Source: a virus
Reading direction: 5' to 3' (one strand)
Virus record (IMG/VR): IMGVR_UViG_3300028840_003126
Location: 1-41,387 of that record
DNA length: 41,387 nt
Shown here in pieces: positions 2,058 through 34,322 of this stretch. The translations under genes were made by a program, and so were the position numbers. How positions within the stretch are numbered: the stretch's first letter is position 1; each line of letters opens with the position of its first letter. Under the pieces are notes generated by a model, which was given only the letters and a program-made list of their open reading frames with translations, was not told the DNA's origin and did no database searches.

Positions 2058-2996
2058 CTATGTGATTATTATATCCTCACTGATAATGATATTTTCATAA
2101 TAAGATGATGTGACCACATCATCTGGTGCCATTTGAAACAACTCATTGCCCATTAATTCAATACCACCTTCATGGCCAATAGCCACACCGGACATCCATG
2201 ACCATTCCAGACGATTGTTTTCACATGATACAAGATAACATCTGTCTGAATCTTTATGTGGAAATATAATCAGATCATTGCCATTGATTTGGTTTTCCAT
2301 AATAATTTTATTTCTGTTTTGTTCTTCGGCAACTGTCAGTTTATTCCAAAAGGCAGAATAATAATAAACCAGACCCTTATAAAATTTTTTATTTACTGCA
2401 TTATCTAATTTATATCCGGATTGTAATAATGGAATAAAACCATGCTTAAATTGATTTCTCCAGGGCAAAGGCAATTGTATATCATATAATATTTCCCGGA
2501 TAGACACATGATCCACATATATTTTTCCTTCTGATGTGACCGGATCACCAGATTCCGGATATATCTGGAAAAAAAATGTAGTGCTGGCATCTGGTGTGGG
2601 CATGGTGGTTTCATAAACATGTTTTTTCCAGTATTCAAATGCTGTCCTGGACTCCACACTTCCATTTTCAAATTTGGCTTTGAATACCTGATTTGTATCA
2701 CTGGCCCTTTTTGCAAATAATGTACAGATGAATTTTTTACCTTGAATGGCAGATCCAAAATTTATTGTATGATCCACATACATATTTGCCAGGATGGAAT
2801 CATCTTCCACGCCCATCACATAATCCCCAAATGGTGTTGCGGTATCTGATTCCCTGGTGATGGTGGCACCATTTCCTGCTGTCCAATCATTTAAATTTTC
2901 TTCAAAACCCTGGTTGGTGACCAGTTCTGGACCCACAATTAAAATTCTGGGATTTTCAATCCCGGCAATGACATTGGCTGCTTCAATTTGTGCCAT
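2058..2996 (-). CDS. Tail fibre / receptor-binding-like protein (312 aa) with a CBM-like N-terminal segment
   Basis: ORF track. It starts 1 nt after the 1242-aa tail protein gene ends. NQGFEENLNDWTAGNGA resembles the opening strand of CBM4/9-type modules; this call is by eye only. Confidence 0.6.
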   Translation of the reverse strand: MAQIEAANVIAGIENPRILIVGPELVTNQGFEENLNDWTAGNGATITRESDTATPFGDYVMGVEDDSILANMYVDHTINFGSAIQGKKFICTLFAKRASDTNQVFKAKFENGSVESRTAFEYWKKHVYETTMPTPDASTTFFFQIYPESGDPVTSEGKIYVDHVSIREILYDIQLPLPWRNQFKHGFIPLLQSGYKLDNAVNKKFYKGLVYYYSAFWNKLTVAEEQNRNKIIMENQINGNDLIIFPHKDSDRCYLVSCENNRLEWSWMSGVAIGHEGGIELMGNELFQMAPDDVVTSSYYENIIISEDIIIT

Positions 2997-2997
2997 T

Positions 2998-5900
2998 TTA
3001 CATTCCTATAGCTTTAATGGTTAATATTAATTTTTGCAGATCCAGATGCAGGCTTTCTATGTGAAAATATGATGATCTGTCTATATCATAACGTCTTTCT
3101 GAATACACAGTGTTGAATCTGTCCCTTTGTTCTAATTCCAGGATTGGAATTGAATTCTGTTTTATGCTTTCCCGGATGGTGCCCAGATAACTGTGATTTT
3201 CATCTGCAATGGCTTTTGCCAGGAATTGATCTGTGATAAATCTGTTTTCCAGTTCCAGGCCACGCCTGTCCCATCCTGGTGTCCCAGATGTTTCATCACC
3301 ATTTGAATCATCCAGGATGGATTCCCAATTCACCTGGATGTAATCATAATAATGTTTCCAGATTCCCTGTGGCTGGATCCCTTCATTTAATAAATGCTTT
3401 TCACTGTAAAATGTGAAGGTGTCATCATATGTTTCCCTTTTATTCATGTTGAATTTTCGCTGGCTGTTGATCCATATGACAAAGGCAACCAGCTGTGCCA
3501 TGTCTGTCAGAACTTCCCTTAAAACCATGTTTGAAAAGTCTGCATATTGAATGACCGGATAAAAGCTTTCTGTATAGGACCACAGGACACCATTTTCACC
3601 AATGGTATTGCCTAAAATTTTATTGTTTCCGGATATCAGAAATGTGCTGTCATAATCTGAATGATCAATCACATCTTTTTCTGTGATGGTGATTGTTCCA
3701 CCACTGAATGTGGTTTCAATCAGATAGGATCCTTCTTTTTGATATCGTCTGTCAATGACCATGGCATATATTTTTTCGGTGGTGTCCACTGTGTGTGACA
3801 GAAAATGAATCATCTGCCGGTGTGGATCTGTCAATTGAATTGAATACATTTCATCTGCTGTGATGTCATATACAAAATAATGATATTCAAAATTTCCTCG
3901 GTCCAAAAGACATCCATGGATGGTGTTTTCAGTTGAATTTATGGCCATGTCCAAAATGACCTGGTATGCTTCCCGGCCAGTGATGGATTGCCCGGCTTCT
4001 GCTGAATCAGATGAAAAATTAAATAATGCTGTCAGACTTGATAAATTCCGATATAAAATGCAGGGTGATTTTGTCCCGGCACCTGAATCTGACCACTCCA
4101 TGAATGCCAGATAATTATATGTCCCATCAAATGTGATGGCCATGACATTGACATGGATATTTTTATTTGTATAAATATCATACATGGACCCTTCATTGCC
4201 CTGATAATCCACATATCTGATATCAGATTCAGCCAGGGTGTCATGGACCAGGCTGGACCATATGATCCACCGGTCATTGTTTGAATCCCACCGGACCACA
4301 TATGGATTTCCCAATTCAAAGGGAAAAGCCAGATTGCTTTGGTCGCCGGTCCCGGTCACGTTGTCATTCAGCATATAATGTCCGGCTGGGCAAAAATATT
4401 CTGTTCCTGAATTTGGATTTGATGGCCAGCCGGTTCCGAAATAAAACCGGCCATTGCCGGTGATGTTGTTGGTGTCCAAACCATTGGCATCATATAATAC
4501 ATTTTCTGATCCGGGATAATGTGACAACATCTGTGGATAAGGAATGCACAGATTTTCACCTGAACTTCTTAATGTGGAATATCCTATGGTCCGATGATCC
4601 GCACCATCATAATATCCATTCCGGTATTGCCTTTTTCCGGTCCTGGCATAGATCTGAAAAAAATCATAAAAATCAGTGATGCCACCGGTGTTGGCCCGGA
4701 AGGTAAAATTGAACCTGGTGGCCGGTGTCTTTGGCCACTTTTGTTCCCCAATGCCATGGATCTGATTCGCTGCATCCATGGCCAGGGCAGAAATTATGTG
4801 GACTGTTGTCAGGACATCTGTGGGTGGTGGCACTGTGTCAATATGTTCAAATCCTTCTGTTTCATCAAATGTCCACAATTCATCTTCAATTCCCAGCCAC
4901 CACAATTGCCTGTTTGCATCCCAGAATCCTGCAGTGACCTTTTTCCCATAAAATGGATATGGTGCCTGGCCAAATATATGAATAGTGGGATCATCAGAAG
5001 TCAATGCCAGGGTGTCAATGTTCCGGTCTGCACTTAAAATATTTGCTTTATCCAGGCATAGATCCACAATTTTATTTATGGGTAAATTCCTATACCAGTT
5101 TGCAGTGATCCAGTTTCCGGAATCATCCTGTCTGATGATCAGATCTTCTTCTAAATCCACTTGGCCAAATTTGGTGAAGTCATGTTCAAGATCAATGGAC
5201 CGGCCATCTGTTCCATATAGCCGGATCCTTCTGGTCACCCGGTCAAAATAGGCTGCACCGGATCCATAGGATGATATATATATCCGGATCCCATAAAGAT
5301 TCTGGACATCATCCAGACCGGATGGTTCCTGGGCTGTCGGCCTCCACCCTTCTGCTGCAGCCTTGGTCCAGGTGATGGTTCCATCCTGGGATAAATTGCT
5401 GCTGCCATCTGTGACTGTCAGTGATGCCCAGGTGTCAAATCCTTTTGAATACATCACAGAAATGGTGGATGATGCCAGATTTGAACTTTCACCCAGGATG
5501 ATGTTCAAACCATAGAATGGCCGGTCAGAATAAAAATATATATAATCACTGGCATCATCTAAGGCTTCATATTCATCCCCGGACACATTATTTTCACCGG
5601 TTTCTTCTGTGTAAGTGCTGCCATCATATCTGATCACCCGGATAAAATCAGTGACCAGATCTTCCCATTGTCCCTTGTTAAATTGAATTTTCGGGATCCC
5701 CTCTGCTGCCACTTCCGGCTTTAATTCATTTTCAACAATGACAATTCCTTCCCGGCTTTGCACATCAAAGGTGGTGCAATCCACAGTGATAGTGGTGGTG
5801 TCCTTTGCTGTCAATGTCTGGCCGGTGGTGTCTTCGGTCAATGTAGTCAGGGCACCATTGTCCCAGGAAAAAAGATCTGGATAAACAAATTTCAGTGATT

Positions 5901-6726
5901 TGACACCGGTGGTGGTGTCTTTGTCGATGTCTTTGATGGTGATGCCCTGCATCCCTTTTGATTCAAATTTATATTTTATTTTGAATACACCAGGCAAACT
6001 TCCGGATGGGACATCCACACTTTTTATATTGATTCCTTTTAGTTTCAAAAAATATCCGGACTGCTGGCTGATTTCAAATCCAGGATATCTTTCCAGTTCC
6101 TTCATAAAACCCATGGCCTGGAATGTCAGGATCTTTCTGTATTTATCCGGATGGATCATTTCCCTGGGAATGATTCCTGAAAAATACAGCAGCCTGGTGG
6201 TGTCTTGTTTATATCCCAATTTCACCCGGATCCAGGCAGTCAAATGAAGATTGAATAAACCGGAGGCATCTTTATTGTAGAAATATCCTTCACTGTTATC
6301 CACCACCACCTTCACATCATCTGCCATAAATGAATTCAAGGTTTCGCCTTCCGTATCCACCCGGATGGGACTGATTCCATTTTCCACCAGATAGTCTGTA
6401 TCTCCACCATGGATGATATATTTTTTAGCCACATGGAATCCAACAATTGTGGTGGGAAGTGTACCGGTGATGGTGATGGTGGTTTTTCCACCGGCATATG
6501 TGGGACTGGCAGATATCTGATAATCAATATCATAATCCACCAGTGGGATGGTCAGATAATCATTTTGTGAAAATATCCCGGTGGCATCACCGGATACTTT
6601 TAATTGTGTGGCTGAATCTCTGTCTGTGATTTCTCCATCAAACTGGCCCAGGATTTCTATTTTTTTTACCAGTTGTGTATGCAGTTTTTCCTGCTCTGCT
6701 GTGAAATTTGCTGTTATTGTTTTCAT
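2998..6726 (-). CDS. Large distal tail / baseplate-hub-like structural protein (1242 aa)
   Basis: ORF track. Its start overlaps the end of the tape measure gene by 4 nt (6723-6726). This position, directly after the TMP, is where siphophage Dit/Tal-type proteins sit. No specific motif recognised. Confidence 0.6.
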   Translation of the reverse strand: MKTITANFTAEQEKLHTQLVKKIEILGQFDGEITDRDSATQLKVSGDATGIFSQNDYLTIPLVDYDIDYQISASPTYAGGKTTITITGTLPTTIVGFHVAKKYIIHGGDTDYLVENGISPIRVDTEGETLNSFMADDVKVVVDNSEGYFYNKDASGLFNLHLTAWIRVKLGYKQDTTRLLYFSGIIPREMIHPDKYRKILTFQAMGFMKELERYPGFEISQQSGYFLKLKGINIKSVDVPSGSLPGVFKIKYKFESKGMQGITIKDIDKDTTTGVKSLKFVYPDLFSWDNGALTTLTEDTTGQTLTAKDTTTITVDCTTFDVQSREGIVIVENELKPEVAAEGIPKIQFNKGQWEDLVTDFIRVIRYDGSTYTEETGENNVSGDEYEALDDASDYIYFYSDRPFYGLNIILGESSNLASSTISVMYSKGFDTWASLTVTDGSSNLSQDGTITWTKAAAEGWRPTAQEPSGLDDVQNLYGIRIYISSYGSGAAYFDRVTRRIRLYGTDGRSIDLEHDFTKFGQVDLEEDLIIRQDDSGNWITANWYRNLPINKIVDLCLDKANILSADRNIDTLALTSDDPTIHIFGQAPYPFYGKKVTAGFWDANRQLWWLGIEDELWTFDETEGFEHIDTVPPPTDVLTTVHIISALAMDAANQIHGIGEQKWPKTPATRFNFTFRANTGGITDFYDFFQIYARTGKRQYRNGYYDGADHRTIGYSTLRSSGENLCIPYPQMLSHYPGSENVLYDANGLDTNNITGNGRFYFGTGWPSNPNSGTEYFCPAGHYMLNDNVTGTGDQSNLAFPFELGNPYVVRWDSNNDRWIIWSSLVHDTLAESDIRYVDYQGNEGSMYDIYTNKNIHVNVMAITFDGTYNYLAFMEWSDSGAGTKSPCILYRNLSSLTALFNFSSDSAEAGQSITGREAYQVILDMAINSTENTIHGCLLDRGNFEYHYFVYDITADEMYSIQLTDPHRQMIHFLSHTVDTTEKIYAMVIDRRYQKEGSYLIETTFSGGTITITEKDVIDHSDYDSTFLISGNNKILGNTIGENGVLWSYTESFYPVIQYADFSNMVLREVLTDMAQLVAFVIWINSQRKFNMNKRETYDDTFTFYSEKHLLNEGIQPQGIWKHYYDYIQVNWESILDDSNGDETSGTPGWDRRGLELENRFITDQFLAKAIADENHSYLGTIRESIKQNSIPILELEQRDRFNTVYSERRYDIDRSSYFHIESLHLDLQKLILTIKAIGM

Positions 6727-10060: not shown

Positions 10061-10792
10061 TTACGGAAAATAAACCAGTAAATCACCGGCATTGTCAATT
10101 TCAATATTTATGTCAAAACCAAATGATGTGAAATCACCGATGCCGGACCCGAAAGCAAATTCACCGGTCCTTTTGCACTTGGCTGCATAAATGACAGCAT
10201 CACCCTTGGTGCCACCGAATTTTTCCCTGGTCCGGATGGATGCATATAATTCAAATGAATCCGGAAGATCTGTGGGATCAATGGTTAAGGTTTCACCATC
10301 AGCAGCATCCAGGTAAAAATATGACACCTTCATGATGGTGCCATCTGAAAATGTTCCTGTATTCAGTGTGATGGTGGTGCCGGATATCTGATATTCATCA
10401 GCAGCAGCCGGTGCCCCACTTACTTGCAGCAATGGGATTTTATTTGATCCGGATTCCACCACACGCATTGTATTTGTGATGGGTGTTTGTGATGTGGTGA
10501 CTGCATTGGTGGCCACGGTTAATGATTCTTCCCGGATCCTTTTGACTGTCCCGGTTGCACTGGCACCACCGGTCAGGGTGGCCATCAATGATGCATTAAA
10601 TCCCAAAAATCCTAATCTTCCGGTGATGGGTTGTCCGGTGATTTCCACAATATTTCCACCGGAATCACCCTTCCGGCCAGTGATCGTTTCCAGGCCAAAC
10701 TGCAGGGCCAGTTCCTGAATTTCAAAAGCTTCCTTGCCACCGATAAAGGCAACACCTTCACCCCACATTATTTGATTTAAATTTTCGGCCAT
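10061..10792 (-). CDS. Major tail (tube) protein candidate (243 aa)
   Basis: ORF track. Size, Gly/Thr-rich beta-type composition and position directly upstream of the chaperone gene fit. No sheath-sized gene is present nearby. Confidence 0.6.
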   Translation of the reverse strand: MAENLNQIMWGEGVAFIGGKEAFEIQELALQFGLETITGRKGDSGGNIVEITGQPITGRLGFLGFNASLMATLTGGASATGTVKRIREESLTVATNAVTTSQTPITNTMRVVESGSNKIPLLQVSGAPAAADEYQISGTTITLNTGTFSDGTIMKVSYFYLDAADGETLTIDPTDLPDSFELYASIRTREKFGGTKGDAVIYAAKCKRTGEFAFGSGIGDFTSFGFDINIEIDNAGDLLVYFP

Positions 10793-11523: not shown

Positions 11524-12007
11524 ATATATATTTCCTGGCCATTGCTTCTGCTATCCTGTAATCCTTCGGATATTCAAAAAACTGGAATGGCCTTAATTGA
11601 TTTTGATATCCTGTATATTGGACACTACTGTCCATGATCAATTTTTTCTTTGATGACCTTCTGACATCTAAAAGGCCAGATTGCATTCTTCCGGTATCTC
11701 TCATCAGATTTGATCTTCTGGTCACTCTTTTTCCGGATGGCCTTAATCTTCCCTGGACTCCCCTTGTCCCTTCTGCTGGGACCACGGTGCCATCTGCCCT
11801 GGCATATTGTGGTGCAAACCAGGACCAGGTGACACCACGGTCTCTGCCACCACTTTTCAATCTTATAAACATACCAGTTAAAACACTGGTCATATATGTG
11901 TAGAAATTAATAAAAAATGGCCTCAAATTGGACATTCTTTTCTGATGGTCCTTTAAATATATTTTGGCTTCTTCACCATGGAATTCAATGCTGAATTTTT
12001 CCATCAA
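11516..12007 (-). CDS. Virion morphogenesis protein, Mu G-like (Phage_tail_S type)
   Basis: RPFFINF...GGRDRGVTWSWFAPQYARADGTVVPAEG...RVTRRSNLMRDTGRMQSGL resembles the Mu G family. This is recognition by eye. Confidence 0.6.
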   Translation of the reverse strand: MMEKFSIEFHGEEAKIYLKDHQKRMSNLRPFFINFYTYMTSVLTGMFIRLKSGGRDRGVTWSWFAPQYARADGTVVPAEGTRGVQGRLRPSGKRVTRRSNLMRDTGRMQSGLLDVRRSSKKKLIMDSSVQYTGYQNQLRPFQFFEYPKDYRIAEAMARKYIYG

Positions 12008-12303
12008 TCTTTCACCTTAAAATTTAGATCCTTTTCATAAACATTGGAATCACTGGTGGTGACCTGAAATGATATTTTATAGGATTCATCATCTGTCCCG
12101 GCCCGGACCTTGGCCATATATTGTGATCCTGAAACAGATTCAGATCCTGGCACAATCATGGCACTGGTCACATCATTGCCATCAGAATCTTCCACCAGGA
12201 CAGTGCTGCTGCCCAGGATCAATGTTTCCCCTGTGTCCAGGACTTTTTCAAAATCCACAGATACCGGGAATATTTCTGCTGATTTCTTTGTAAAATCTGC
12301 CAT
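12004..12303 (-). CDS. Small beta-rich protein (99 aa) sharing the C-terminal LNFKVK motif with the repeat protein
   Basis: ORF track. It ends ...EKDLNFKVKD, while the upstream gene ends ...KNLNFKVKN. Fourteen nucleotides (accttaaaatttag) are identical at both gene ends. Confidence 0.6.
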   Translation of the reverse strand: MADFTKKSAEIFPVSVDFEKVLDTGETLILGSSTVLVEDSDGNDVTSAMIVPGSESVSGSQYMAKVRAGTDDESYKISFQVTTSDSNVYEKDLNFKVKD

Positions 12304-14249
12304 TAATTTTTGACCTTAAAATTTAGGTTTTTAAAATATTCATGCAATTTGTTTACGTCTTTTTCATGTTCCTTGCTTTTTGTATAATAAAAATAATATC
12401 TGATTTCACCAAATGTGATCACCAATGGCTGTGGCACATCACCGATGGCTGCAGCTGCCTGTGGTGTGAAGATTATATCACCATATATGAATGTGGGATC
12501 TGACTTGGATCCAATGGCACTGGCCGGATCCGGTGTGATAAAAAATTGACCGGCAAAAACTTTCGGATCTGCTTTGGATCCAATGGCACTGGCCGGATCC
12601 GGTGTGATCGATAATGACCCATATATCACCACAGGATCTGTTTTATTGCCCAGGGCATTGATGGCATCTGGTGAAATAATTAGGCTGCCCAGGACCACAG
12701 TGGGATCTGACTTGGATCCAATGGCACTGGCCGGATCCGGTGTGAAGTTTATATCACCATATATAAATGTAGGATCCACCTTGGATCCAATGGCATTGAT
12801 GGCTGCCGGTGTCAAGGTCAGTGTGCCATATATAACTGTCGGATCTACTTTTCCACCCAGGGCATTAATCGGATCCGGTGTGACCAGTTCCACATTTGCT
12901 GGAATTGTGGGATCCACTTTTCTGCCCAGGGCATTGATGGCTGATGGTGTGATCGTCTGGCTGCCCAGGACCACAGTGGGATCCACTTTGGTTCCGATGG
13001 CATTAATCGCACCTGGTGTGATAATTAAACCACCACCCAGGACAAAGGGATCCACTTTTCTGCCCAGGGCATTGATGGCTGCCGGTGTGATGGCCAGGCT
13101 GCCCAGGACCACTGTGGGATCCACTTTTCTGCCCAGGGCATTAATCGCACCTGGTGTGATGGCCAGGCTGCCCAGGACCACTGTGGGATCCGCTTTTCTG
13201 CCCAGGGCATTGATGGCTGCCGGTGTGATCGTCTGGCTGCCCAGGACCACTGTGGGATCCACTTTGGATCCAATGCCACTGGCCGGATCCGGTGTGATGG
13301 GTGGCTGGCCAATGGCCACGGTGGGATCCACTTTTCTGCCCAGGGCATTGATGGCTGCCGGTGTCAAGGTCAATGTGCCATATACAACTGTCGGATCTAC
13401 TTTGCCACCCAGGGCATTGATGGCTGCCGGTGTGATGGCCAGGCTGCCATATATGACTGTTGGATCCACTTTGGTTCCGATGGCATTAATCGCACCTGGT
13501 GTGATGGCCAGGCTGCCCAGGACCACTGTGGGATCCACTTTGGATCCTATGGCATTGATGGCTGCCGGTGTGATCGTCTGGCTGCCCAGGACCACTGTGG
13601 GATCCACTTTGGTTCCTATGGCATTGATGGCTGATGGTGTCAAATTCAAACTTCCTTTCACAACTGTTGGATCCACTTTGGATCCTATGCCACTGATGGC
13701 ACCTGGTGTGATGATCAGGGCTGTGGCTGCAGTCAATACCTGTGGATGTGTTTCAGTTCCCAGATTTATTTCTGCATATCCGGTGCCATCTCCACTGTTT
13801 AACACCCGGAAATAATATGTGGTGCCACCAGTCACATTGGCAGTGGGCACAATGGCAAAATCAAATTCATAATCACTGCCGGCTAACATGTCAAATGTCG
13901 TTTGACCATCTGATTCCCTGTATGGCCCTTTTCCGGTGGTGTCTGACAATTTATTTGTGGTGACTGTATTATCTTCTGTGGCCTGGCCATTGGCATAATC
14001 AAAATGATTTGCTGATCCCAAAACGGTCCATGATGATTCATCTGTTGAATATTCAATACGCCAATATCCATTGTTTTGTCCACTCTCACCAGTGGATTCA
14101 TATATCCTGACCCTCAATCTAAAAATATCAGAATTGTTGGCCAGTGTCGGTTTCACATTTTCTGCTGCCAGGGCAGTGGATGGTTCTGCTGCATCATCAT
14201 CCATCATCCGCCAATTGCCCTGATTTGGTGTGAAGGCAGCATGGCCCAT
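12303..14249 (-). CDS. Repeat-containing fibre/decoration-like protein (648 aa): ~179-aa N-terminal domain, 19 x 23-aa repeats, short C-terminal tail
   Basis: ORF track. I/L/V/F-T/S-P recurs at residues 180, 203, 226 ... 594 with no indel. Confidence 0.85.
   Translation of the reverse strand: MGHAAFTPNQGNWRMMDDDAAEPSTALAAENVKPTLANNSDIFRLRVRIYESTGESGQNNGYWRIEYSTDESSWTVLGSANHFDYANGQATEDNTVTTNKLSDTTGKGPYRESDGQTTFDMLAGSDYEFDFAIVPTANVTGGTTYYFRVLNSGDGTGYAEINLGTETHPQVLTAATALIITPGAISGIGSKVDPTVVKGSLNLTPSAINAIGTKVDPTVVLGSQTITPAAINAIGSKVDPTVVLGSLAITPGAINAIGTKVDPTVIYGSLAITPAAINALGGKVDPTVVYGTLTLTPAAINALGRKVDPTVAIGQPPITPDPASGIGSKVDPTVVLGSQTITPAAINALGRKADPTVVLGSLAITPGAINALGRKVDPTVVLGSLAITPAAINALGRKVDPFVLGGGLIITPGAINAIGTKVDPTVVLGSQTITPSAINALGRKVDPTIPANVELVTPDPINALGGKVDPTVIYGTLTLTPAAINAIGSKVDPTFIYGDINFTPDPASAIGSKSDPTVVLGSLIISPDAINALGNKTDPVVIYGSLSITPDPASAIGSKADPKVFAGQFFITPDPASAIGSKSDPTFIYGDIIFTPQAAAAIGDVPQPLVITFGEIRYYFYYTKSKEHEKDVNKLHEYFKNLNFKVKN
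12402..13712 (-). repeat. 19 tandem 69-bp coding repeats (consensus ITPAAINAIGxKVDPTVVLGSLx)
   Basis: Exact 23-codon periodicity. Many units share identical runs of more than 30 bp (for example gccaggctgcccaggaccactgtgggatccacttt). Confidence 0.9.
14001..14040. repeat. 40-bp exact repeat, copy 1 (inside the fibre gene, encodes ESSWTVLGSANHF)
   Basis: aaaatgatttgctgatcccaaaacggtccatgatgattca is identical at 26672..26711. Confidence 0.9.
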
Positions 14250-14570
14250 TTATTTTATCCTTTTCCAAATATAACTGCATTTATCATGCAGTTTTTCATG
14301 TGGATCCCTGGGATAGATTGCACACCAATATGGCCTGGACCACATGATATTGCATTTTCCCTGCTGTATTCCATTTTCTGTTTCCCTGGTATATTTTTTG
14401 CAAGATCCATCCGGGTTTCTTAATTCAGGCACCGGCATTTTTGTCTGTTCGCAACACTGGCCACACCGGTTGCATTCACCGGTCAATTCCCAAACTTCAC
14501 CATTTTCCAGGATTGCTTTCCTGACAGCTGTCCTTGGTTCAATGATTGAAATTTCAATTTTTGTCGGCAA
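14250..14570 (-). CDS. CxxCxxCC-motif protein (YkgJ / UPF0153-like putative Zn- or Fe-chelating domain), 106 aa
   Basis: Contains GECNRCGQCCEQ plus further Cys residues (C..C..W.C). Its stop abuts the start of the repeat protein gene. Confidence 0.7.
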   Translation of the reverse strand: MPTKIEISIIEPRTAVRKAILENGEVWELTGECNRCGQCCEQTKMPVPELRNPDGSCKKYTRETENGIQQGKCNIMWSRPYWCAIYPRDPHEKLHDKCSYIWKRIK

Positions 14571-15245: not shown

Positions 15246-15704
15246 TTATGTTTCTGAAATTCTGATTTCACAATCCTGCAGTGTCAGATCCTGGCCATCA
15301 GAAACAGATCTGTCAGATGTCAGATCAAAATAAAAATATATTTCCCTGTTGGCCTGGGTTGCATTATCATCACAGATGATTGCATACCTGGCACCATTTC
15401 CACTGGCCGGGATAGGACCACCGGATGCAGACCAGGTGATGTCCTTCAACTGGACCAGTGCCCAGTCACTTGCATCCACTTCTGTCCAGGTGTCCCAATC
15501 TGTGGAATTAAATGACAGTGATGTCCCACCGGCCACATATCCATTCCCGGCTGCAATTTCTGTCATTTCTGTTTCTGTGTTTGTGTCCGGGCCTGGTGCA
15601 GCTGCAGATGTGACCAGTTCAATATAAAAATTGGTCGGTTTTGTTTCACCTCGGAAATATTGTCCCAGGACCTGATATTTTCCTTTGTTTGTCCAGCCTG
15701 CCAT
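15246..15704 (-). CDS. Hypothetical structural-module protein (152 aa)
   Basis: ORF track. SD-like aagggggattaataATG. Confidence 0.65.
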   Translation of the reverse strand: MAGWTNKGKYQVLGQYFRGETKPTNFYIELVTSAAAPGPDTNTETEMTEIAAGNGYVAGGTSLSFNSTDWDTWTEVDASDWALVQLKDITWSASGGPIPASGNGARYAIICDDNATQANREIYFYFDLTSDRSVSDGQDLTLQDCEIRISET

Positions 15705-17193: not shown

Positions 17194-18153
17194 TTAGGCC
17201 ACGGTGTCTAAAATCAAATACCCATAGGATGTGGATACATTTTTCACCTGGTATTTCCGGGTTGTTTCGTAAGATCTGACCTTCTTTTCATCATAGGTCC
17301 TGACTTCCGGATATCCCATTTCTTCAATGATCACCGTGTGTGGTGTGGTTCCTTCCACCGCTTCTTCACCCATCACATTGCCATTGTTGTCTGTTGGCAC
17401 ATAAATCAAAGCCACAGAATCATTCCACAGATCTGTGAAAACACCGGCATCTGTTGAATAGACCTTTTTCCCCACAATAATCCGGTCAACACCCAAAAGC
17501 TGTGCTGCCAGATCTTCTGTGACAATGCCCTTCTGTGAATATTTAAGATTTTCCAGCAATGCCGGGTGGAATCTCAGCTTTTCCCAGGCAGTGTATCCGA
17601 TCACCATGGTGTTCGGTTCAATTCCCATGTCTGCCCTGGCTGCAATTCTTCCGGTGGCCACATCACCGACTGGATCACTGGTGGCATATTCATTCCACTG
17701 GTTTCCACCGGTTAGTGTGGTTTTGTTTCCTGTGGCATAATAAGTGGTGGAAAATACGATATCAGCCACAGCCTTTTCCAGTTCCACTTCCAGGATCCGT
17801 TGTGTGAAATTGATGGATCTTTTTTCCAACTGCAGAACACGGCTGGCACCATATTTGGCTGCCTGGTCCAGTTCCTTATAATCCAGTGATGTTTCAATGG
17901 CATGTTCTGTGCAAAGGAATGTATCATTTGTCAAATGATAATCCGCTTTTTTGGCATTGGCACGCAGGGCACGCTCTGTGTCATAAATATAAAACCCTTC
18001 TTTGCCAAATTTGAAGAAGGTCCCGGATTCCCGGTCTGCTTTTATAACTGGTGCCACCAGCCGGGCAATGCCCTGGACTGGTCTGTATCCCACCGCAAAC
18101 TTTGTAAGGATGGGATCTGTTTCTGCACGTAATTGTGCTAATCTTCCGGCCAT
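17194..18153 (-). CDS. Major capsid protein (319 aa, HK97-fold / Phage_cap_E-like)
   Basis: Size and position after the protease/scaffold and decoration genes fit. The sequence resembles lambda-E-type coat proteins by eye. Confidence 0.75.
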   Translation of the reverse strand: MAGRLAQLRAETDPILTKFAVGYRPVQGIARLVAPVIKADRESGTFFKFGKEGFYIYDTERALRANAKKADYHLTNDTFLCTEHAIETSLDYKELDQAAKYGASRVLQLEKRSINFTQRILEVELEKAVADIVFSTTYYATGNKTTLTGGNQWNEYATSDPVGDVATGRIAARADMGIEPNTMVIGYTAWEKLRFHPALLENLKYSQKGIVTEDLAAQLLGVDRIIVGKKVYSTDAGVFTDLWNDSVALIYVPTDNNGNVMGEEAVEGTTPHTVIIEEMGYPEVRTYDEKKVRSYETTRKYQVKNVSTSYGYLILDTVA

Positions 18154-22119: not shown

Positions 22120-23517
22120 TCAGATTTTTTTTTTACTGTCCTTTTTGAACCAATTTAAAAAACCGGTCCAGGTTTTCACGCCCTGATTCTGGTATTGCTC
22201 ATATAATTGTTCATATTCATCCGGATCCGGGATAAAATCATCCTGGAATTCCTGCATGTCTTTTCTGTTGTCCGGTTTTTTGGCCTGTGGTTCCCCACTT
22301 TGCACTTCTGATGGCTGCAAAATATCCATTCCATCTGTGGCCATCGGAATGCCGGTGGATTCATGTGCCCATTGCACCGGGATTTTCATTCCGGCATTGA
22401 CCAGATTTGCCAGTGTCTGTGATAGTGAAATCAGGGCACCAATGTCAATGCCTAAAAATTTGAATTTGGGATATACATCTGTCAGGAAATTATAATCCAC
22501 CAGCCTTTTTATAATTTGCTCATTGACAGCATGTGAAATGTCAAAGGCATCAAAGGCCACATAATCTTCCATGGTCTGGGCATGTGTCTGTCCCAGGGCA
22601 TAGGATCCCTGGCCCCTTTTTCCTTCTTCACTGGACAGTGTTTGGCCAATGATGATTTTGCTGATTTCTTTGTTGCACCGTTCAATGAAATTGTCATAAC
22701 CGACTTCACCGGATCTTTCAGCTTCCAGGAAATCCACCACAAAACCTTTTGGCACTCGGATCCCGGTATCCTTCCGGACAGCTTCCAGAATTTCATCCAC
22801 CTTGGCAATTTCTTCCGGTGTGGCCTTGGCTGGCATTTCCACCCTGGTCAATGGCATTCCAAATCTTTCAGAAAATATGGCCCAGAATTTTGCTTCATTT
22901 TCTTTTAACCACACCCAGAATGCAGACTTTGCACCAAATGAATCACCATATGGGTTTTCATCATTTGGTCCATTGATAATATGGACAAATTTGTATGTGG
23001 GCATCACTTTTTCTTCCGGATCAAATTGCTTTATGATCCATCGGCCATATCTGTCAAACTTGAATGTGAAATATTTGGCCGGTTTAAATCGCAATGATTG
23101 CAATCCCACTTTGCCCTGGTATCTGCCACGGACCAGTCTGGCATAATTGATTTCTGTCAGGCTGAATCCTTTGCTGATTTTATCCAGCATGGCTTCCAGG
23201 TCATTTTCAAAACTTCCATGCATGGCTTCCAGTTGATGATTGACAAAATCTGAAATCTGGATGTCCCTGGCAGAATCAGATGCAGGATCCACACGCCATC
23301 CCTTTTTCATCAGTTTCTGTCTTCTGGTGGCCAGGACACTGGTGAAATGTGTGTCCCTTTCCACCTTTTTTTCCAGATATTCCATCCCTTTGGATGATAT
23401 CAACTTGTCCGGGTTTTCTTTGTCGGATATTCCATATTTATATAAAATATCATACCCGGCTGCAGCTGCCTGGGTGAAGATCCTGGGATCCGTTTTGGTG
23501 TTTTTTTGTTCTGCCAT
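22120..23517 (-). CDS. Portal protein (Mu gp29 / DUF935-like), 465 aa
   Basis: Size and position between TerL and the Mu-F-like gene fit. Sequence character resembles the family by eye. Confidence 0.8.
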   Translation of the reverse strand: MAEQKNTKTDPRIFTQAAAAGYDILYKYGISDKENPDKLISSKGMEYLEKKVERDTHFTSVLATRRQKLMKKGWRVDPASDSARDIQISDFVNHQLEAMHGSFENDLEAMLDKISKGFSLTEINYARLVRGRYQGKVGLQSLRFKPAKYFTFKFDRYGRWIIKQFDPEEKVMPTYKFVHIINGPNDENPYGDSFGAKSAFWVWLKENEAKFWAIFSERFGMPLTRVEMPAKATPEEIAKVDEILEAVRKDTGIRVPKGFVVDFLEAERSGEVGYDNFIERCNKEISKIIIGQTLSSEEGKRGQGSYALGQTHAQTMEDYVAFDAFDISHAVNEQIIKRLVDYNFLTDVYPKFKFLGIDIGALISLSQTLANLVNAGMKIPVQWAHESTGIPMATDGMDILQPSEVQSGEPQAKKPDNRKDMQEFQDDFIPDPDEYEQLYEQYQNQGVKTWTGFLNWFKKDSKKKI

Positions 23518-28010: not shown

Positions 28011-29045
28011 TCAAAACTTGCCACCTTCTTTTATATCATGATTAAGTTTTTCCCTGGCCTTTTTTAAGATCTGGACAAAGCCAGTCTGGTGTTTTGGTGC
28101 CTGCAGATCTGTGGTGCCACGCAATTTGATTGTTTCCGGACTGATCACATCAGCAATGTGTATATATCTCATAGTGGTTTCCAGCCAGGCATGGCCCATC
28201 AGGATCCGCAATTGTTCCACCCTGGTGCCATGGATCACTGAATATGTCCCAAAAAAATGCCGGAAACTGTGTGTGCTGATCCGCTTTGTGATATCAGCAT
28301 TTTTCCTGGCCCTGGCAATGACACCTTTTATGCCAGAAATATTTAACCGGCCACCATGATGTTTCCGGCCATACTGGATAAACAAGGGATCTGAATCCCT
28401 GTGATTTTGTACATACTTAATATCCTGATAATAGGCTGCAAAAAATTCAGCCACCATTGCACCGGCTGTCAGATAACCAAAAGGGACCAGCCTTTCCCTG
28501 CTTTTTATCCTGGGCACCACCAGGGCAAAATTATTTTCATGAATCTGAATGCTGCCAATATTCAGTGCCTGGCATTCACTGACCCGGATCCCGGTATCCG
28601 CTAAAAGACACAGGATGGCTGCATCCCTTCTGCCAATGGGCTTGGAGGTCTTGCAGGAATAAACCATCCTGGTCAGTTCATCCGGTGTGAACATTGATGG
28701 GATCTTGATTTCTTCCTGGATAGGACCAATTAATTCACACGGATTTTTTATATGATATCGCTTTGAATACCAGTCATAAAATATTCTGATCGATGCCTGT
28801 TTTATTTTTTGGGTGTTGATGCTGTTCTTCTGGTCCACTTTCAGGTGGATAATATAATCCTGGACATCTTCCATGGTGATTTCTTCCGGATTTTCTTTTT
28901 TTGTCCAGGCAAAAAATGACCTGATATTCATCAGATATCGATTGACAGATGATTCCCTTTTGTCCTGGTTTACAATTTTATATTTCTTGAAATCTTCCAG
29001 GGCAAATTCCAGTTCCCTGTTATTTTTCAGATCCATATTATCCAC
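28011..29045 (-). CDS. int: Tyrosine recombinase / phage integrase (344 aa)
   Basis: Catalytic signature ADTGIRVSE (R), HSFRHFFGT (HxxR), LMGHAWLETTMRYIH (H/W and Y), with an N-terminal SAM-like domain. Confidence 0.9.
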   Translation of the reverse strand: MDNMDLKNNRELEFALEDFKKYKIVNQDKRESSVNRYLMNIRSFFAWTKKENPEEITMEDVQDYIIHLKVDQKNSINTQKIKQASIRIFYDWYSKRYHIKNPCELIGPIQEEIKIPSMFTPDELTRMVYSCKTSKPIGRRDAAILCLLADTGIRVSECQALNIGSIQIHENNFALVVPRIKSRERLVPFGYLTAGAMVAEFFAAYYQDIKYVQNHRDSDPLFIQYGRKHHGGRLNISGIKGVIARARKNADITKRISTHSFRHFFGTYSVIHGTRVEQLRILMGHAWLETTMRYIHIADVISPETIKLRGTTDLQAPKHQTGFVQILKKAREKLNHDIKEGGKF

Positions 29046-30238: not shown

Positions 30239-30338
30239 TGGCCAAATGCCTGGTCAACCGGTGGCCAGTCAGATCCTGGTTGACCACTGATTGACCATCT
30301 GACCATTGATTGACCACTGATTGACCACTGTTTGGCCA
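30239..30338. repeat. Iteron array: six direct T(T/C)G(A/G)CCA copies at 11-bp phasing plus inverted copies
   Basis: TTGACCA at 30280, 30291, 30310 and 30321. CTGACCA at 30299 and TTGGCCA at 30332. Inverted TGGCCAA at 30239, TGGTCAA at 30251 and TGGCCAG at 30262. An AT-rich tract follows at 30341-30375. Confidence 0.75.
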
Positions 30339-31328: not shown

Positions 31329-34322
31329 TTAATCATCCCATTCATCCTTTTTGGAATCAAACAGATCCCGGATTTCAATGGGCATTTTTTTCATGTCAAA
31401 AGCAATTGCCCTTTTTCTATATTCACCAAACCTGGCCCGGTTATCCCCTGCCTTGGCATAATGATATGGCAGATTTTTAAGATAATCCAGGATGGTGGTT
31501 TTCTTGAATATCTGGAAGACACCCTGATCCCTTAAATGCCGGATCCAGTCATTGTATATTTCATTATAGCAGATATATAACACACCTTCCAGCTTATCAA
31601 TGCTGATGGTGTTCTTTGTCCGGCCAGTATTCTGCATATAAGATAAATCATTAAAAAATTTGACTGTGATATCTTCTTCTTCTTTTCTCAGTCTTTCCTG
31701 TTTACACTGTTCCACTACAAAATCCATGAATTCCTGGTCCTTTTCATGGTAATCCAAAAGCCAAAAGCAGGCAGCAGGGATGGCATAATTGATGGCTGTC
31801 CTGTTGTCTGAAACACCATTTTCATTGATGTGTGATATAAATTTTTCAATACCTTCCAGGACCTTTTCCTTTTTGGCTGTGGTTTTATTTTTGATGATGT
31901 CCACCAGGATGCATGACAATCTGCTTTGATGTTCCAGCAGCCATTTCCAGGATGCTGTTTTATTTTCTGTGATTTCAGTGAATCTGATCACCACGCACCT
32001 GGACAACAATCCTTTGTCCACAGGTGAATCTTCACCACTGACCCACAGTGTTCCATTGACCACATTGATCTGCCTTTTCTTAATGCCACCCTTGCCTGCA
32101 CCGATCCTGTTGTAAATGTTTTTAGTGATGCCCAGCATCTTGATTGCTTTGCTGTCAGTGCTGTTCAAATATTCATCGTACCATCCAGGCAGGCTGGAAA
32201 GCTGTTCCATAAATTTGAAGGTCCCATCCGGTGTGGCAGATTCCCATGGCTCTGACCGGCCATCAAATCCGAAAAATGACAGCAGGACAGATGTGCTGGC
32301 AGACTTCCCGGTCCCGGATGGGCCATATGGATAAAAAAATGGAAAACATTTGTGTGTGGCTGCAATCTCGTTTAAATAGACTGTGGCAGCCATAAATCCC
32401 AGGGCCAGATATGCCTTGAATGAATTGTCCTGGCCATCATCAATCATATTGTGGAAGTGATCAATGACAGCATTTTTGAATTCCGGATCCGGACCATCTG
32501 TGATGTTCATGGTGGGTGTGTCACCGGAATAGACCAGGACATCTTTTGCCTTGAATCCTTTGCTGTCAATTTTGATGATGCCATCCTGATTTATTTCATG
32601 GACCTTGCCATTTTTGATGGCACAATTTTCAAACAGCCATAGATTGTGTTCCGGCACATATCCATATTTTTGGATATAGTGGATCACTTCTTTGATATTG
32701 GCCTGGCCTTCTTCATATTTCCACATCCTGTAAACTTCTGCCTGTGTGCCATAAAAATAATAGGATCCCTGGGCCACACACTTCAATCTGAATTGCTGCA
32801 GACCGGCCCGGTCTTCCGGTGAAAATATCACAGGCACGGACACTTCTTTTTTCTGGTTTTTTAAGATGCATTCATAATGCAGTTCATCATCCATGACAAA
32901 GATCTTCCGCAATTTCAAAACAAAATCTGATATCTTGACAGTGCTGCCATCATGTGATTTTTTAAAATAGCAGTTTTCATGTTCAATCAGGCCAAAATCA
33001 TCTTTGGGAATTTCCTTTTTTTCAGCCTTGGCCAATTGCCAGGCAGATTTCATTTTGTCAATCTGTTTTTTGATGGCTGTCCGGACCACCACCTTTGGAT
33101 ATTTGGACTTGATAATTTCCAGATATCCTTCCACCAGGATGTCATCTTCCACCTTGGCAATTCTTTCCAGGACCGGATGCAGCAGCTGTGATATTCTGAT
33201 GGTTTCATCACTGTCTGGCAGGCATAATATTTGATATTGGATCCCATCCACTGCCTTTTCTAAAAGGTTGAAATATTCACCGGCTGGATCTGTTTTTAAG
33301 GTCCTTAAATATTCATCGATATCTTTTTTATCAGGCAGCCGGATGATCCGGACCTGGACAAAGCCAGTCAACTGATCAATGATTTTATGGGTGTACATTT
33401 CACCTGGTGGCATCTTCTCCGGATGTGCCGGATCCGGTGGATCATTATCAAATGAAAAATAAACAATCTTGCCAAAACAATACCTTTTGATATAGTCAAT
33501 CTGGTCCTGGGATGGCTGGCCGATCCAGGCAGCAATATTTTTTTCACCTGAAACACGCATGGCAGTGATCCGGTCATTTTCACCTTCCACCAGGACCACG
33601 GTGTCATGATAAAAGGCATTCTGGCCATAGAACAAATGATTGTTCATTTTAAACTGATTTGCCAGCTGATATTGTACTTTTTTTAAGGGATCTTTGAAGG
33701 TGAAGTGTGACACTTTTTTATTGATGAAATGTGGGAAGATATAAACATTCTTTGGAAGGAAATCACCGGTCTGGCCATCCCGGTCCCGGACCAGACCCGA
33801 TGCAATCAGATCTGATTCCTTGAATGATTTTTTTAAATGATTAAAAAGGCCATTCCTTCCGGATCCGGTCCAGCCGATCATGAAGGTCTTTATGGCTGCC
33901 ACAGTGTGCCCACGTTTTCTGGACAGCCAGGATCTTGCCTTTTCATCATCCTGCAGTTTCTGATGATAATAGTCTGCAGCAGCCTGGAATATTTCCTGCC
34001 TGGTGGCCAGGCCATCATCTTCCGGCTGGCCATTGTCAATATTATATCCCACCTTTTCTGCCAGGTAAACCAGGGATTCATATGCTGACTTATTATGCAG
34101 ATCCTGGATAAAATTAAAAACAGATCCACCGGCATCACACTGGAAACAATTAAAATATTGTTTTGATGCATGGATCCGGAAACAGTCATGGCCATGGCAA
34201 AAGGGACATTCCTGCAGATTGAACCAGCTGATGCCCACCTTTTTGACCTGGCTGGATGTTTCAGATCTGATAATGTCCAGGATGTTCACCCGGCCCTTTA
34301 CTTCTTCAAAATCATTTGCCAT
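31329..34322 (-). CDS. Bifunctional DNA primase-helicase (997 aa): CHC2 Zn finger, Toprim, P-loop NTPase
   Basis: CPFCHGHDCFRIH..FNCFQCDAGGSVFNF (DnaG-type Zn finger). VVLVEGENDRITAM (Toprim). YPYGPSGTGKSAS (Walker A). Confidence 0.9.
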   Translation of the reverse strand: MANDFEEVKGRVNILDIIRSETSSQVKKVGISWFNLQECPFCHGHDCFRIHASKQYFNCFQCDAGGSVFNFIQDLHNKSAYESLVYLAEKVGYNIDNGQPEDDGLATRQEIFQAAADYYHQKLQDDEKARSWLSRKRGHTVAAIKTFMIGWTGSGRNGLFNHLKKSFKESDLIASGLVRDRDGQTGDFLPKNVYIFPHFINKKVSHFTFKDPLKKVQYQLANQFKMNNHLFYGQNAFYHDTVVLVEGENDRITAMRVSGEKNIAAWIGQPSQDQIDYIKRYCFGKIVYFSFDNDPPDPAHPEKMPPGEMYTHKIIDQLTGFVQVRIIRLPDKKDIDEYLRTLKTDPAGEYFNLLEKAVDGIQYQILCLPDSDETIRISQLLHPVLERIAKVEDDILVEGYLEIIKSKYPKVVVRTAIKKQIDKMKSAWQLAKAEKKEIPKDDFGLIEHENCYFKKSHDGSTVKISDFVLKLRKIFVMDDELHYECILKNQKKEVSVPVIFSPEDRAGLQQFRLKCVAQGSYYFYGTQAEVYRMWKYEEGQANIKEVIHYIQKYGYVPEHNLWLFENCAIKNGKVHEINQDGIIKIDSKGFKAKDVLVYSGDTPTMNITDGPDPEFKNAVIDHFHNMIDDGQDNSFKAYLALGFMAATVYLNEIAATHKCFPFFYPYGPSGTGKSASTSVLLSFFGFDGRSEPWESATPDGTFKFMEQLSSLPGWYDEYLNSTDSKAIKMLGITKNIYNRIGAGKGGIKKRQINVVNGTLWVSGEDSPVDKGLLSRCVVIRFTEITENKTASWKWLLEHQSRLSCILVDIIKNKTTAKKEKVLEGIEKFISHINENGVSDNRTAINYAIPAACFWLLDYHEKDQEFMDFVVEQCKQERLRKEEEDITVKFFNDLSYMQNTGRTKNTISIDKLEGVLYICYNEIYNDWIRHLRDQGVFQIFKKTTILDYLKNLPYHYAKAGDNRARFGEYRKRAIAFDMKKMPIEIRDLFDSKKDEWDD

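Follow-up and report, generated by a model that had tools for sequence, protein, structure and literature searches.

A phased 23-residue repeat protein between the head and tail genes of a long-tailed phage, proposed as the rope of a beads-on-a-string neck fibre

What does a phage gain from a protein that consists largely of one short repeat? The question is raised by a 648-aa protein encoded in the window, by which we mean the whole stretch of 41,387 nucleotides analysed here. Its gene belongs to a long-tailed phage with a Mu-like head, whose genes include a tape measure and a tail tube, and it lies between the head genes and that for the tube. The places of the capsid, portal and tail tube genes agree with the position between head and tail modules that a sequence-only reading had assigned (Table 1). 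We propose that the protein is the rope core of a beads-on-a-string fibre at the phage neck, a reading from gene context and analogy that we hold with a little more belief than doubt.

Table 1. Features of the repeat locus and flanking landmark genes (window positions)
Feature	Position	Strand	Basis or remark
648-aa repeat protein CDS, proposed rope/fibre core	12303..14249	minus	ORF list
N-terminal domain, residues 1-179 (ends ...ETHPQVLTA), Ig-like beta-sandwich, proposed distal tip	13713..14249	minus	
18 canonical 23-aa units, residues 180-593	12471..13712	minus	family of ~508 clusters at 50% identity
Degenerate unit 19, residues 594-616, FTPQAAAAIGDVPQPLVITFGEI	12402..12470	minus	in register
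C-terminal tail, residues 617-648, RYYFYYTKSKEHEKDVNKLHEYFKNLNFKVKN, proposed collar-interlocking piece	12306..12401	minus	
99-aa Gp77-family Ig-like collar / fibre-tail adaptor	12004..12303	minus	PF23148
106-aa CxxCxxCC (YkgJ-like) protein	14250..14570	minus	PF03692, E 0.003
152-aa Gp80/Fiber-1-like protein, proposed bead	15246..15704	minus	PF23140
Tail tube	10061-10792		PF27173 YomU_Tube
Major capsid protein	17194-18153		phrog_1005, E 1.6e-74
Mu-type portal	22120-23517		

The array is regular throughout. The motif [ILVF][TS]P occurs 19 times, at residues 180, 203 and so on to 594, always at a spacing of 23 and without an indel; a motif scan of the 648-aa protein finds it outside the array only at residue 6. 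The nineteen perfectly phased repeats described from the sequence alone are hence present, as 18 canonical units and one degenerate unit, and unit mapping places all 19 at window positions 12402-13712, exactly where they had been reported. The canonical consensus is ITPxAINAIGxKVDPTVVLGSLx. Across the 18 canonical units P3, G10, K12, D14 and P15 are invariant, and the variation falls mostly at positions 4, 11, 18, 19 and 21-23, in keeping with the earlier remark that it concentrates at a few positions. Roughly 35% of unit positions are hydrophobic. Unit 19 shares 36-49% DNA identity with the other units.

At the DNA level, TRF detects periods of 69, 138, 207 and 276 bp (scores 597-937), and the mean identity between units is 64%. 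Nineteen maximal exact runs of at least 30 bp connect different units, the longest of 62 bp, which matches the identical runs of more than 30 bp noticed before. Several of these exact runs lie at a lag of five units and thus point to block duplication. Were successive units to bind the two halves of a dimer in turn, a two-unit super-period should appear; none was found across 28 arrays (Wilcoxon p 0.65), and in the window array itself the score is marginally higher at lag 46 (3.27) than at lag 23 (3.17). A half-unit period of about 11.5 aa was looked for and not found either. The length polymorphism that the sequence-only reading had suggested is plausible, given long identical runs and a unit number that varies across the family, but the identical recorded copies show none. 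We rejected a diversity-generating retroelement or another diversity-generating system: there is no reverse transcriptase in the scanned ORFs, and the units differ from one another, which is not the pattern of a template and its variable copy.

The 23-aa unit defines a family in metagenomic data, with about 508 clusters at 50% identity and with a unit number that ranges from 3 to more than 20. Curated databases hold no usable repeat family for it: Pfam gives a partial DPC1 match only, NCBIfam gives noise, and sequence and profile searches of the PDB with the repeat return only noise (TCP-1 delta, poneratoxin). The whole 648-aa protein has no tblastn match among GenBank phages, and one family member matches only Brujita-like phages there, at E 0.1. 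The earlier statement that the unit fits no nameable fibre repeat thus holds for Pfam, NCBIfam and PDB sequences, but the unit is not entirely unseen. By HMM comparison the repeat region matches phrog_8501, 'minor tail protein', at E 1.7e-14, and so do 12 of 18 family members (best 1.1e-18). This phrog most likely corresponds to gp24 of mycobacteriophage Brujita. The name 'minor tail protein' is an uncurated annotation.

The DPC1 match (diatom pyrenoid component 1 motif) was rejected. It scores 27.3 bits against a cut-off of 27 with no single stretch passing, covers just positions 5-26 of the 65 in the profile, and is found in 4 of the 18 members. DPC1 is without known function (10.1101/2023.10.26.564148).

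Downstream of the array, the start codon of the 99-aa Gp77-like gene overlaps the stop codon of the repeat gene (TAATG), an overlap which indicates that the repeat gene is translationally coupled to the Gp77-family gene. The 99-aa protein matches PF23148 at E 5e-9 (37 bits, cut-off 27), has a precomputed PF23148 match as well, and reaches gp77 of phage GP4 by local jackhmmer at 1e-28. The final seven codons of the repeat gene and of the Gp77-like gene are identical at 19 of 21 nt. Stop/start overlap and shared final codons are suggestive of a rope joined to, or interlocking with, the Ig-like collar. A homologous C-tail followed by a Gp77 gene is also found in P0022. The N-terminus of a 1490-aa neighbour in locus L002 was considered as a further Gp77-like domain and dropped, with nothing from BLASTP and only weak Big_1/Invasin matches from Pfam.

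Upstream, the 106-aa CxxCxxCC gene abuts the repeat-gene start, and the gene for the 152-aa protein lies about 1 kb from it. The alignment of the 152-aa protein with PF23140 is full-length and colinear, at E 0.007 and 17 bits, which is below the cut-off of 27. Against GP4 gp80, hhalign gives E 1.5e-3 and a probability of 17%, and PF23140 is precomputed on three homologues with 67-68% identity. A profile of the 152-aa family did not recover the gp80 of 8JOU from the PDB at E <=1. The homology to Gp80 is weak, and the 152-aa protein is a putative bead. A neck whisker had been among the guesses made from position alone. It is now the best reading, with a Gp77-family gene as the next gene and a Gp80/Fiber-1-like gene 1 kb away.

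Does this arrangement recur? We scanned IMG/VR contigs for repeat loci with a 12-sequence alignment of two units. A gene of the highly conserved 152-aa family lies within about 1.3 kb of the repeat gene in 12 of 15 independent loci (the window, L026, L007, L008, L030, L031, L032, L033, L035, L036, L039 and L040), of which L030-L040 were found through the repeat motif alone. The linked homologues are 51-66% identical and either adjacent or within that distance. In each of the three remaining loci the flank is truncated. At least 11 more contigs, matched to each other by identical length, appear in the match lists of both families, and the bead family comprises more than 800 clusters. The other genes of the phages with linked loci are unrelated to the genes of the window.

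The bead homologues are only 25-32% identical in L001 and L011, where the N-terminal domain of the window protein is joined to another repeat type, and in L023, which has no repeats. The bead gene hence seems to co-vary with the type of repeat. A triad of a Gp80-like gene, a repeat protein with homologous C-tail and a Gp77-like gene occurs in L026-28 and again in L039, and the repeat proteins of L026-28 carry a different, beta-helix-like N-terminal domain. Thus repeats, tail and collar stay linked as the heads at the N-terminus are exchanged. In L007, L008 and Brujita the repeat/bead pair lies in a tail-tip module without a Gp77 gene. Since this holds for many members, a neck location cannot be generalised to the family.

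To explain these linkages, we propose the following fibre. The 18-19 units would form an extended polypeptide, and each would dock the 152-aa Gp80/Fiber-1-like protein, as monomer or dimer, by supplying the strand or strands that complete an incomplete beta-sandwich in the partner. End-to-end packing of identical beads would impose the exact phasing of 23 residues, and the number of units would set the length of the fibre. At one end the 32-residue C-tail would interlock with a ring of the Gp77-family Ig-like collar that encircles the head-to-tail adaptor. At the other end the Ig-like N-terminal domain would form the distal tip, probably a weak adhesion or binding module. The anatomy of the repeats, the homology to Gp77, the gene linkages and the modular nature of both termini are observed; we infer the stoichiometry, the polarity, the neck location and the physical threading, the last from synteny and analogy.

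The closest analogue is Fiber I of GP4 (PDB 8JOU; Zheng et al. 2023, as described in PMC11445570 and PMC12609058), and a Gp77-family collar gene is present in both phages. In GP4 the fibres are anchored by 15 copies of the 93-aa Ig-like gp77, set in a ring around the head-to-tail adaptor (PMC11445570). In GP4 and Bas63, dimers of Fiber-1 or whisker protein are threaded as beads on an extended rope joined to the Ig-like collar (PMC12609058). Fiber-1 and whisker subunits combine an N-terminal helix with an incomplete beta-sandwich. In the 8JOU entry there are 10 chains of gp80 and 3 of gp77. The GP4 gene order is gp80-gp79-gp78-gp77, and the window likewise has a Fiber-1-like gene, one or more intervening genes, a gene for a large protein and a Gp77 gene. 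GP4 gp79, with about 11 units of about 20 aa, lies between bead and collar genes as the window repeat gene does, but its repeat sequence is unrelated to the 23-aa unit. The GP4 rope is not identifiable by sequence: gp79, the candidate, and gp78 are absent from the PDB and have no Pfam family. The two systems differ further in that GP4 is a podophage whereas the window phage is long-tailed with a Mu-like head, in that the GP4 rope carries five dimers against an array of 18-19 units here, in the 179-aa N-terminal domain that the window rope adds, and in the weak similarity of the 152-aa protein to GP4 gp80.

Felixounavirus phages (Bas63, Sf14 and Felix O1; PDB 9MT4; PMC12609058) also have an Ig-like neck collar with whisker dimers on a rope. 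The polarity is alike: the collar protein of Felix O1 and Bas63 has an N-terminal rope followed by the Ig domain, and the window has rope, tail and a separate Ig gene. Their rope is a short N-terminal extension of the collar protein, whereas the proposed rope of the window has a 648-aa protein to itself, in which a tip domain precedes the 19 units. The Felix O1 collar and whisker share no detected sequence similarity with the window proteins. By our estimate, Felix O1 ORF54 offers at most about 48 rope residues to two whisker dimers, or about 23 aa per dimer. This disagrees with the estimate from GP4 gp79, which, if it is the rope, would supply about 20-23 aa per monomer.

Brujita gp24 (132 aa) is a bare relative: five units of about 23-24 aa of the same repeat type (Y/I-x-P-x-x-I-x-S-S-A-x-V-x-K-P-T-V-x-x-G) and no tip domain. 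It adjoins gp23 (133 aa), a member of the 152-aa family by hhalign (probability 80%, E 1.4e-5), and judged by their sequences the two may form a minimal rope/bead pair. By contrast with the window gene, gp24 lies in the tail-tip/lysis region without a Gp77 gene, and the tblastn match is weak (E 0.1). We found no published structure or function for gp24. Hoc and wac of T4 share with the proposed fibre a non-essential-looking Ig-like display module and the concept of a neck-associated fibre. Yet Hoc consists of Ig domains in a row and wac of a trimeric coiled coil; 23-aa beta repeats are absent from both, and neither is homologous to the proteins described here.

The N-terminal domain is modelled by AF2 as a confident beta-sandwich (pLDDT 90, pTM 0.84). 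It had been taken for a jelly-roll, but its best Foldseek matches are of the Ig-like/E-set type (RhoGDI, complement C3 MG, cohesin, integrin) and not viral jelly-rolls, and all are weak (E 3.4e-4 or worse, TM <=0.43). A BFVD structure search with the domain gave no match at E 1e-3 or better. The domain stays constant across more than 20 loci; it occurs alone, at 180-240 aa, as well as joined to at least eight unrelated C-terminal modules. The CxxCxxCC gene lies directly upstream of the gene for this domain in the window, in L001, L002 and L004, and in most IMG/VR loci. On most members of the 23-aa family the N-terminal domains are lectin-like or enzyme-like (LamG, DNRLRE, beta-helix). A mixed MAFFT alignment of domain and repeats was discarded, as the repeats were mis-aligned onto the domain.

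Could the array instead fold by itself, as the sequence-only reading implied with its new solenoid or fibre fold? The array would then be a fibre shaft. A single chain would wind into a right-handed beta-solenoid whose 19 rungs, one unit each, span about 9 nm; alternatively, three chains would intertwine as a trimeric beta-helix. In this reading the 152-aa protein would be an assembly chaperone or another, separate part of the fibre. The AF2 monomer is indeed a regular, all-beta solenoid with about four short strands per unit; pLDDT is 65-81 over the first ~250 residues, with stretches at 70-81. Its top PDB matches by Foldseek are all right-handed parallel beta-helices (HK620 tailspike, Ag43, TibA, RbmB), and the model resembles such helices in the HK620/P22 tailspikes and the Ag43/TibA passengers, whose rungs count about 19-23 residues. 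A rung of some 22-23 residues is typical of beta-helices, so the unit length fits, and the share of hydrophobic positions is also compatible with a shaft. Against this, overall pLDDT is 62 and pTM 0.50, the Foldseek scores on this model are weak (best E 4.4e-3, TM ~0.2), and AF2 tends to over-predict solenoids for tandem repeats. The moderate monomer model is what one would expect if the array needs partners. Beta_helix, PbH1, NosD and Pectate_lyase signatures of Pfam are absent from the 648-aa protein at E <=0.1 and from 18 repeat-family members at E <=0.01. Beta-helix tailspikes and autotransporters do not depend on a co-encoded bead, five uncapped units in Brujita gp24 are unlikely to make a stable solenoid, and a self-folding shaft leaves the near-obligate linkage to a Fiber-1-like gene unexplained. 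A new fold is thus not established, the linkage points to the known threaded rope, and we regard a self-folding shaft, the main rival of the rope reading, as unlikely, if worth keeping in mind.

The fibre may also point the other way. The N-terminal domain would then be the virion anchor, for example a capsid decoration or neck-binding domain that perhaps acts together with the CxxCxxCC protein, and array and tail would be exposed and exchangeable. Tail fibres as a rule have a conserved N-terminal anchor and a variable C-terminus, and a constant domain that precedes so many unrelated modules, stands alone elsewhere and always has the same upstream partner gene fits this rule. But in L026-28 another N-terminal domain precedes the array and C-tail, again with a Gp77 gene, the last seven codons are common to C-tail and collar gene, the rope is N-terminal to the Ig domain in the Bas63/Felix O1 collar, and most N-terminal domains of the family resemble working heads rather than anchors. 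We consider the reversed orientation improbable. Still far less credible is a unit number produced by assembly, with the tandem array collapsed or expanded. Exact runs reach 62 bp, longer than typical k-mers, and short-read assemblers could be misled by them; yet the same 648-aa product is recorded on 4 contigs, units that are on average just 64% identical in DNA differ enough to anchor reads, and frame and phasing are unbroken along the whole array.

For the rope-and-bead fibre we know of just two or three solved cryo-EM phage structures. Apparently, this type of fibre is widespread in uncultured phages. If the rope reading is right, the repeat provides a sequence signature for ropes and links repeat number to fibre length. 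It would also be evidence that uncultured long-tailed phages commonly have this architecture and that a cultured mycobacteriophage has it too. Such a fibre would be a plug-and-play scaffold made by nature, in which tip and anchor can be exchanged and the length tuned, and it would be relevant to host-range evolution and to engineered phage display or adsorption appendages. Names that are probably wrong for these proteins, the generic 'minor tail protein' and the predicted beta-helix, would be corrected as well.

A broader proposal, which we hold at slightly less than even confidence, is that the Fiber-1-like bead recognises the 23-aa unit as a modular docking code. Rope and bead families would then form a widespread, portable fibre cassette with a length set by copy number, a swapped N-terminal head and a C-tail that chooses the attachment site. 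Unequal recombination could alter the length, which ranges from 3 to more than 20 units; the heads would be Ig-like, LamG, DNRLRE/CBM or beta-helix enzyme domains, and the C-tail would pick the neck collar or the tail tip.

The repeat array of the 648-aa protein starts at residue 180 and consists of 19 units of exactly 23 residues each. The motif [ILVF][TS]P is found at residues 180, 203 and so on to 594, and only once elsewhere in the protein. Since every spacing is 23, the indel-free phasing claimed by a sequence-only reading is borne out. Eighteen units are canonical (consensus ITPxAINAIGxKVDPTVVLGSLx) and unit 19 is degenerate. Positions P3, G10, K12, D14 and P15 are invariant. As had been described, variation is focused at a few positions (4, 11, 18, 19 and 21-23).

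At the DNA level, TRF detects a 69-bp period and multiples of it (top score 937), and the mean identity among units is 64%. Different units do share long stretches of DNA: 19 exact runs measure 30 bp or more, up to a maximum of 62 bp. Hence, the earlier description of the repeats is right in all checkable details. Three of the longest runs are spaced at a lag of five units, the trace of a block duplication. The identical 648-aa protein is recorded on four contigs, and we regard it as highly improbable that the repeat number is an assembly artefact. The G+C content is 52.9% in the repeat region, 44.9% in the part of the gene encoding the N-terminal domain (residues 1-179) and 40.8% in the window. 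The high value could stem from amino-acid composition, from an array of foreign origin, or from both. A 413-aa open frame antisense to the array is a shadow ORF due to repeat composition and no candidate for an independent gene.

Coordinates of features in the window and in compared loci
Feature	Position	Strand	Remark
Large proteins without annotation (1242 aa, 312 aa)	2058-6726	-	after tape measure gene
Gp77-family protein, 99 aa	12004-12303	-
Shared gene end, Gp77-like gene	12007-12027	-
Repeat protein ORF, 648 aa	12303-14249	-	from ORF list
Shared gene end, repeat gene	12306-12326	-
Repeat region	12402-13712
Antisense open frame, 413 aa	12574-13815	+
CxxCxxCC (YkgJ-like) gene	14250-14570	-	PF03692, E 0.003
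Gp80-like protein, 152 aa	15246-15704	-
Mu-type portal	22120-23517
Terminase			in window
Integrase	28011-29045
11-bp tandem array	30276-30338
Primase	31329-34322
Weak Laminin_G_3 protein, 375 aa	39564-40691	-	window end
CxxCxxCC genes elsewhere	L001 1383-1697; L004 1240-1563; L002 9680-9997		also most of L010-L022
GP4 gp79	L029 17948-18925	-	Ralstonia phage
Felix O1 ORF54	L043 6710-7210

To explain the array, we lean towards a beaded neck fibre, by analogy with known phages. The 648-aa protein would be a rope carrying bead subunits, a Gp77-type collar would anchor it at the neck, and the Ig-like N-terminal domain would form the tip. The stop codon of the repeat gene overlaps the start of the 99-aa gene (TAATG), whose product is a member of Pfam Gp77 (E 5e-9, above cut-off). 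About 1 kb upstream of the repeat gene, the 152-aa gene matches Pfam Gp80 weakly but over its full length (E 0.007), suggesting a weak homology to gp80. The repeat gene and the Gp77-like gene end alike: their final seven codons are identical at 19 of 21 nucleotides (LNFKVKN vs LNFKVKD). A related protein, P0022, ends in a homologous tail (…YNKDLTFKN), and its gene also precedes a Gp77 gene. These shared ends would fit a C-terminal tail that mimics or exchanges the terminal strand of the collar. That the same parts are arranged with reversed polarity seems unlikely to us.

In GP4, Fiber I is reportedly a "chain-like extended fibre". PDB 8JOU contains ten gp80 and three gp77 chains. Fiber I of this podophage has gp77 and gp80 among its components. 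Fifteen Ig-like gp77 subunits form a ring around the head-to-tail adaptor, where they anchor the fibres (PMC11445570). The collar-whisker complex of Bas63, treated as homologous to GP4 Fiber I, has whisker dimers on a rope "such as beads on a string"; the rope threads grooves in the whisker monomers and completes their incomplete sandwiches (PMC12609058). GP4 gp79 (325 aa) is encoded between gp80 and gp77. It has ~11 tandem repeats of ~20 aa (residues 18-248), dissimilar to the 23-aa unit, and its sequence is absent from the PDB. By its gene position and its repeats, gp79 is an attractive candidate for the GP4 rope. Felix O1 ORF54 carries Cys52, Cys69 and Cys90, as in the Bas63 collar, and ORF55 (110 aa) corresponds to the whisker. 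Hence, their GenBank labels ("hypothetical protein" and "head protein") are uninformative or outdated.

Genetic linkage bears on the rope reading. By a local iterative search, 12 of 15 independent loci with the repeat gene also have a homologue of the 152-aa protein (51-66% identical), either adjoining that gene or no more than ~1.3 kb away; eleven repeat loci had been obtained via the repeat motif alone. The flank is truncated in each of the other three. At least 11 more contigs are common to the hit lists of both families. The phages with linked genes otherwise have nothing in common with the window. Where the N-domain protein has other or no repeats, the bead homologue is just 25-32% identical. 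In mycobacteriophage Brujita, gp24, the sole cultured family member found (132 aa, five units and nothing more), adjoins gp23, for which hhalign gives a match to the bead family at a probability of 80%.

Alternatively, the array could be a self-standing beta-solenoid or trimeric shaft, a live but rather doubtful alternative. AF2 models the repeats as a regular beta-solenoid with ~4 short strands per unit, at moderate confidence for repeats and tail (pLDDT 62, pTM 0.50). The best Foldseek matches are right-handed beta-helices (E 4e-3 or worse, TM ~0.2). If the array is instead a rope, one unit per dimer would give ~18 dimers and one per monomer ~9. A fully extended rope (~3.3 Å per residue) would, by our estimate, make a chain with a length in the range of 100 nm or more. 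Felix O1 ORF54 has at most ~48 residues before its Ig domain for two whisker dimers, ~23 residues per dimer. The repeat arrays show neither a two-unit nor a half-unit periodicity that would discriminate between the stoichiometries.

The repeat family is large, with 159 matches in 90% clusters, and among 1.84 billion representatives 508 clusters at E ≤1e-3, 317 at 1e-10 and 135 at 1e-30. In Pfam, NCBIfam and the PDB the repeat protein has no sequence relatives except a partial, uninformative DPC1 match; it also matches phrog_8501 ("minor tail protein"). The period is mostly 23; occasionally a unit has 22, 24 or 25 residues. The array usually follows an N-terminal globular domain that differs between members (Laminin_G_3, DNRLRE, beta-helix, others), and it closes with a short tail in which strand-like motifs are repeated in tandem. 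In most of the family members P0001-P0120, 2-4 such ~10-aa motifs of several types (e.g. LTLEDRxT, VTSQKRKV, GRYILALDSS) reach the last residues. They may be attachment elements.

The N-terminal domain is a confidently modelled beta-sandwich (AF2 pLDDT 90). Its nearest solved relatives are Ig-like/E-set domains, with weak scores, and it has no match among viral models. Its distribution is separate from that of the 23-aa repeat: some proteins (180-240 aa) consist of the domain alone, and in others it is joined to C-terminal modules of at least eight unrelated kinds. Thus the 648-aa protein is a chimera of two mobile modules. Fusions after the domain end (ETHPQVLTA) occur in loci L011-L023 and in P0003, P0005, P0020, P0065, P0069 and P0073; partners include tandem repeats of 13, 20, 22 and 24 aa, Ser/Thr-rich linkers, helical repeats, a Kelch-like region and LamG. 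Several of these other repeat types may be alternative ropes matched with divergent bead proteins. Directly upstream, a ~105-aa CxxCxxCC gene forms a conserved pair with the N-domain gene in ~17 of 21 loci, irrespective of the C-terminal module.

In L026-28, a bead gene and a Gp77 gene accompany a repeat protein whose C-tail is homologous but whose N-terminal domain is different and beta-helix-like; L039 has the same triad. Hence, repeat, tail and collar appear to form one set with an exchangeable head. In many family members the repeat/bead pair lies in the tail-tip module without Gp77. We therefore infer a neck location for this phage and L026-, L038- and L039-like phages, not for the entire family.

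The window is approximately a single 41.4-kb phage contig, with its structural genes on the minus strand throughout. Between integrase and primase, CTGATTGACCA, an 11-bp unit in ~6 tandem copies, may represent iterons or an array to which a regulator binds. Given the Laminin_G_3 protein at the window end and the 1242- and 312-aa proteins past the tape measure, the phage seems to have distinct distal-tail receptor-binding proteins besides the proposed neck fibre. Compared to GP4 and Bas63, the proposed rope is separate and much longer. It is built from a defined 23-aa unit, would carry a tip domain and is broadly distributed in metagenomes. In line with the rope reading, the rope-before-Ig order within Felix O1 ORF54 is matched here by two coupled genes. 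The system would be a further variant of the GP4/Bas63 architecture.
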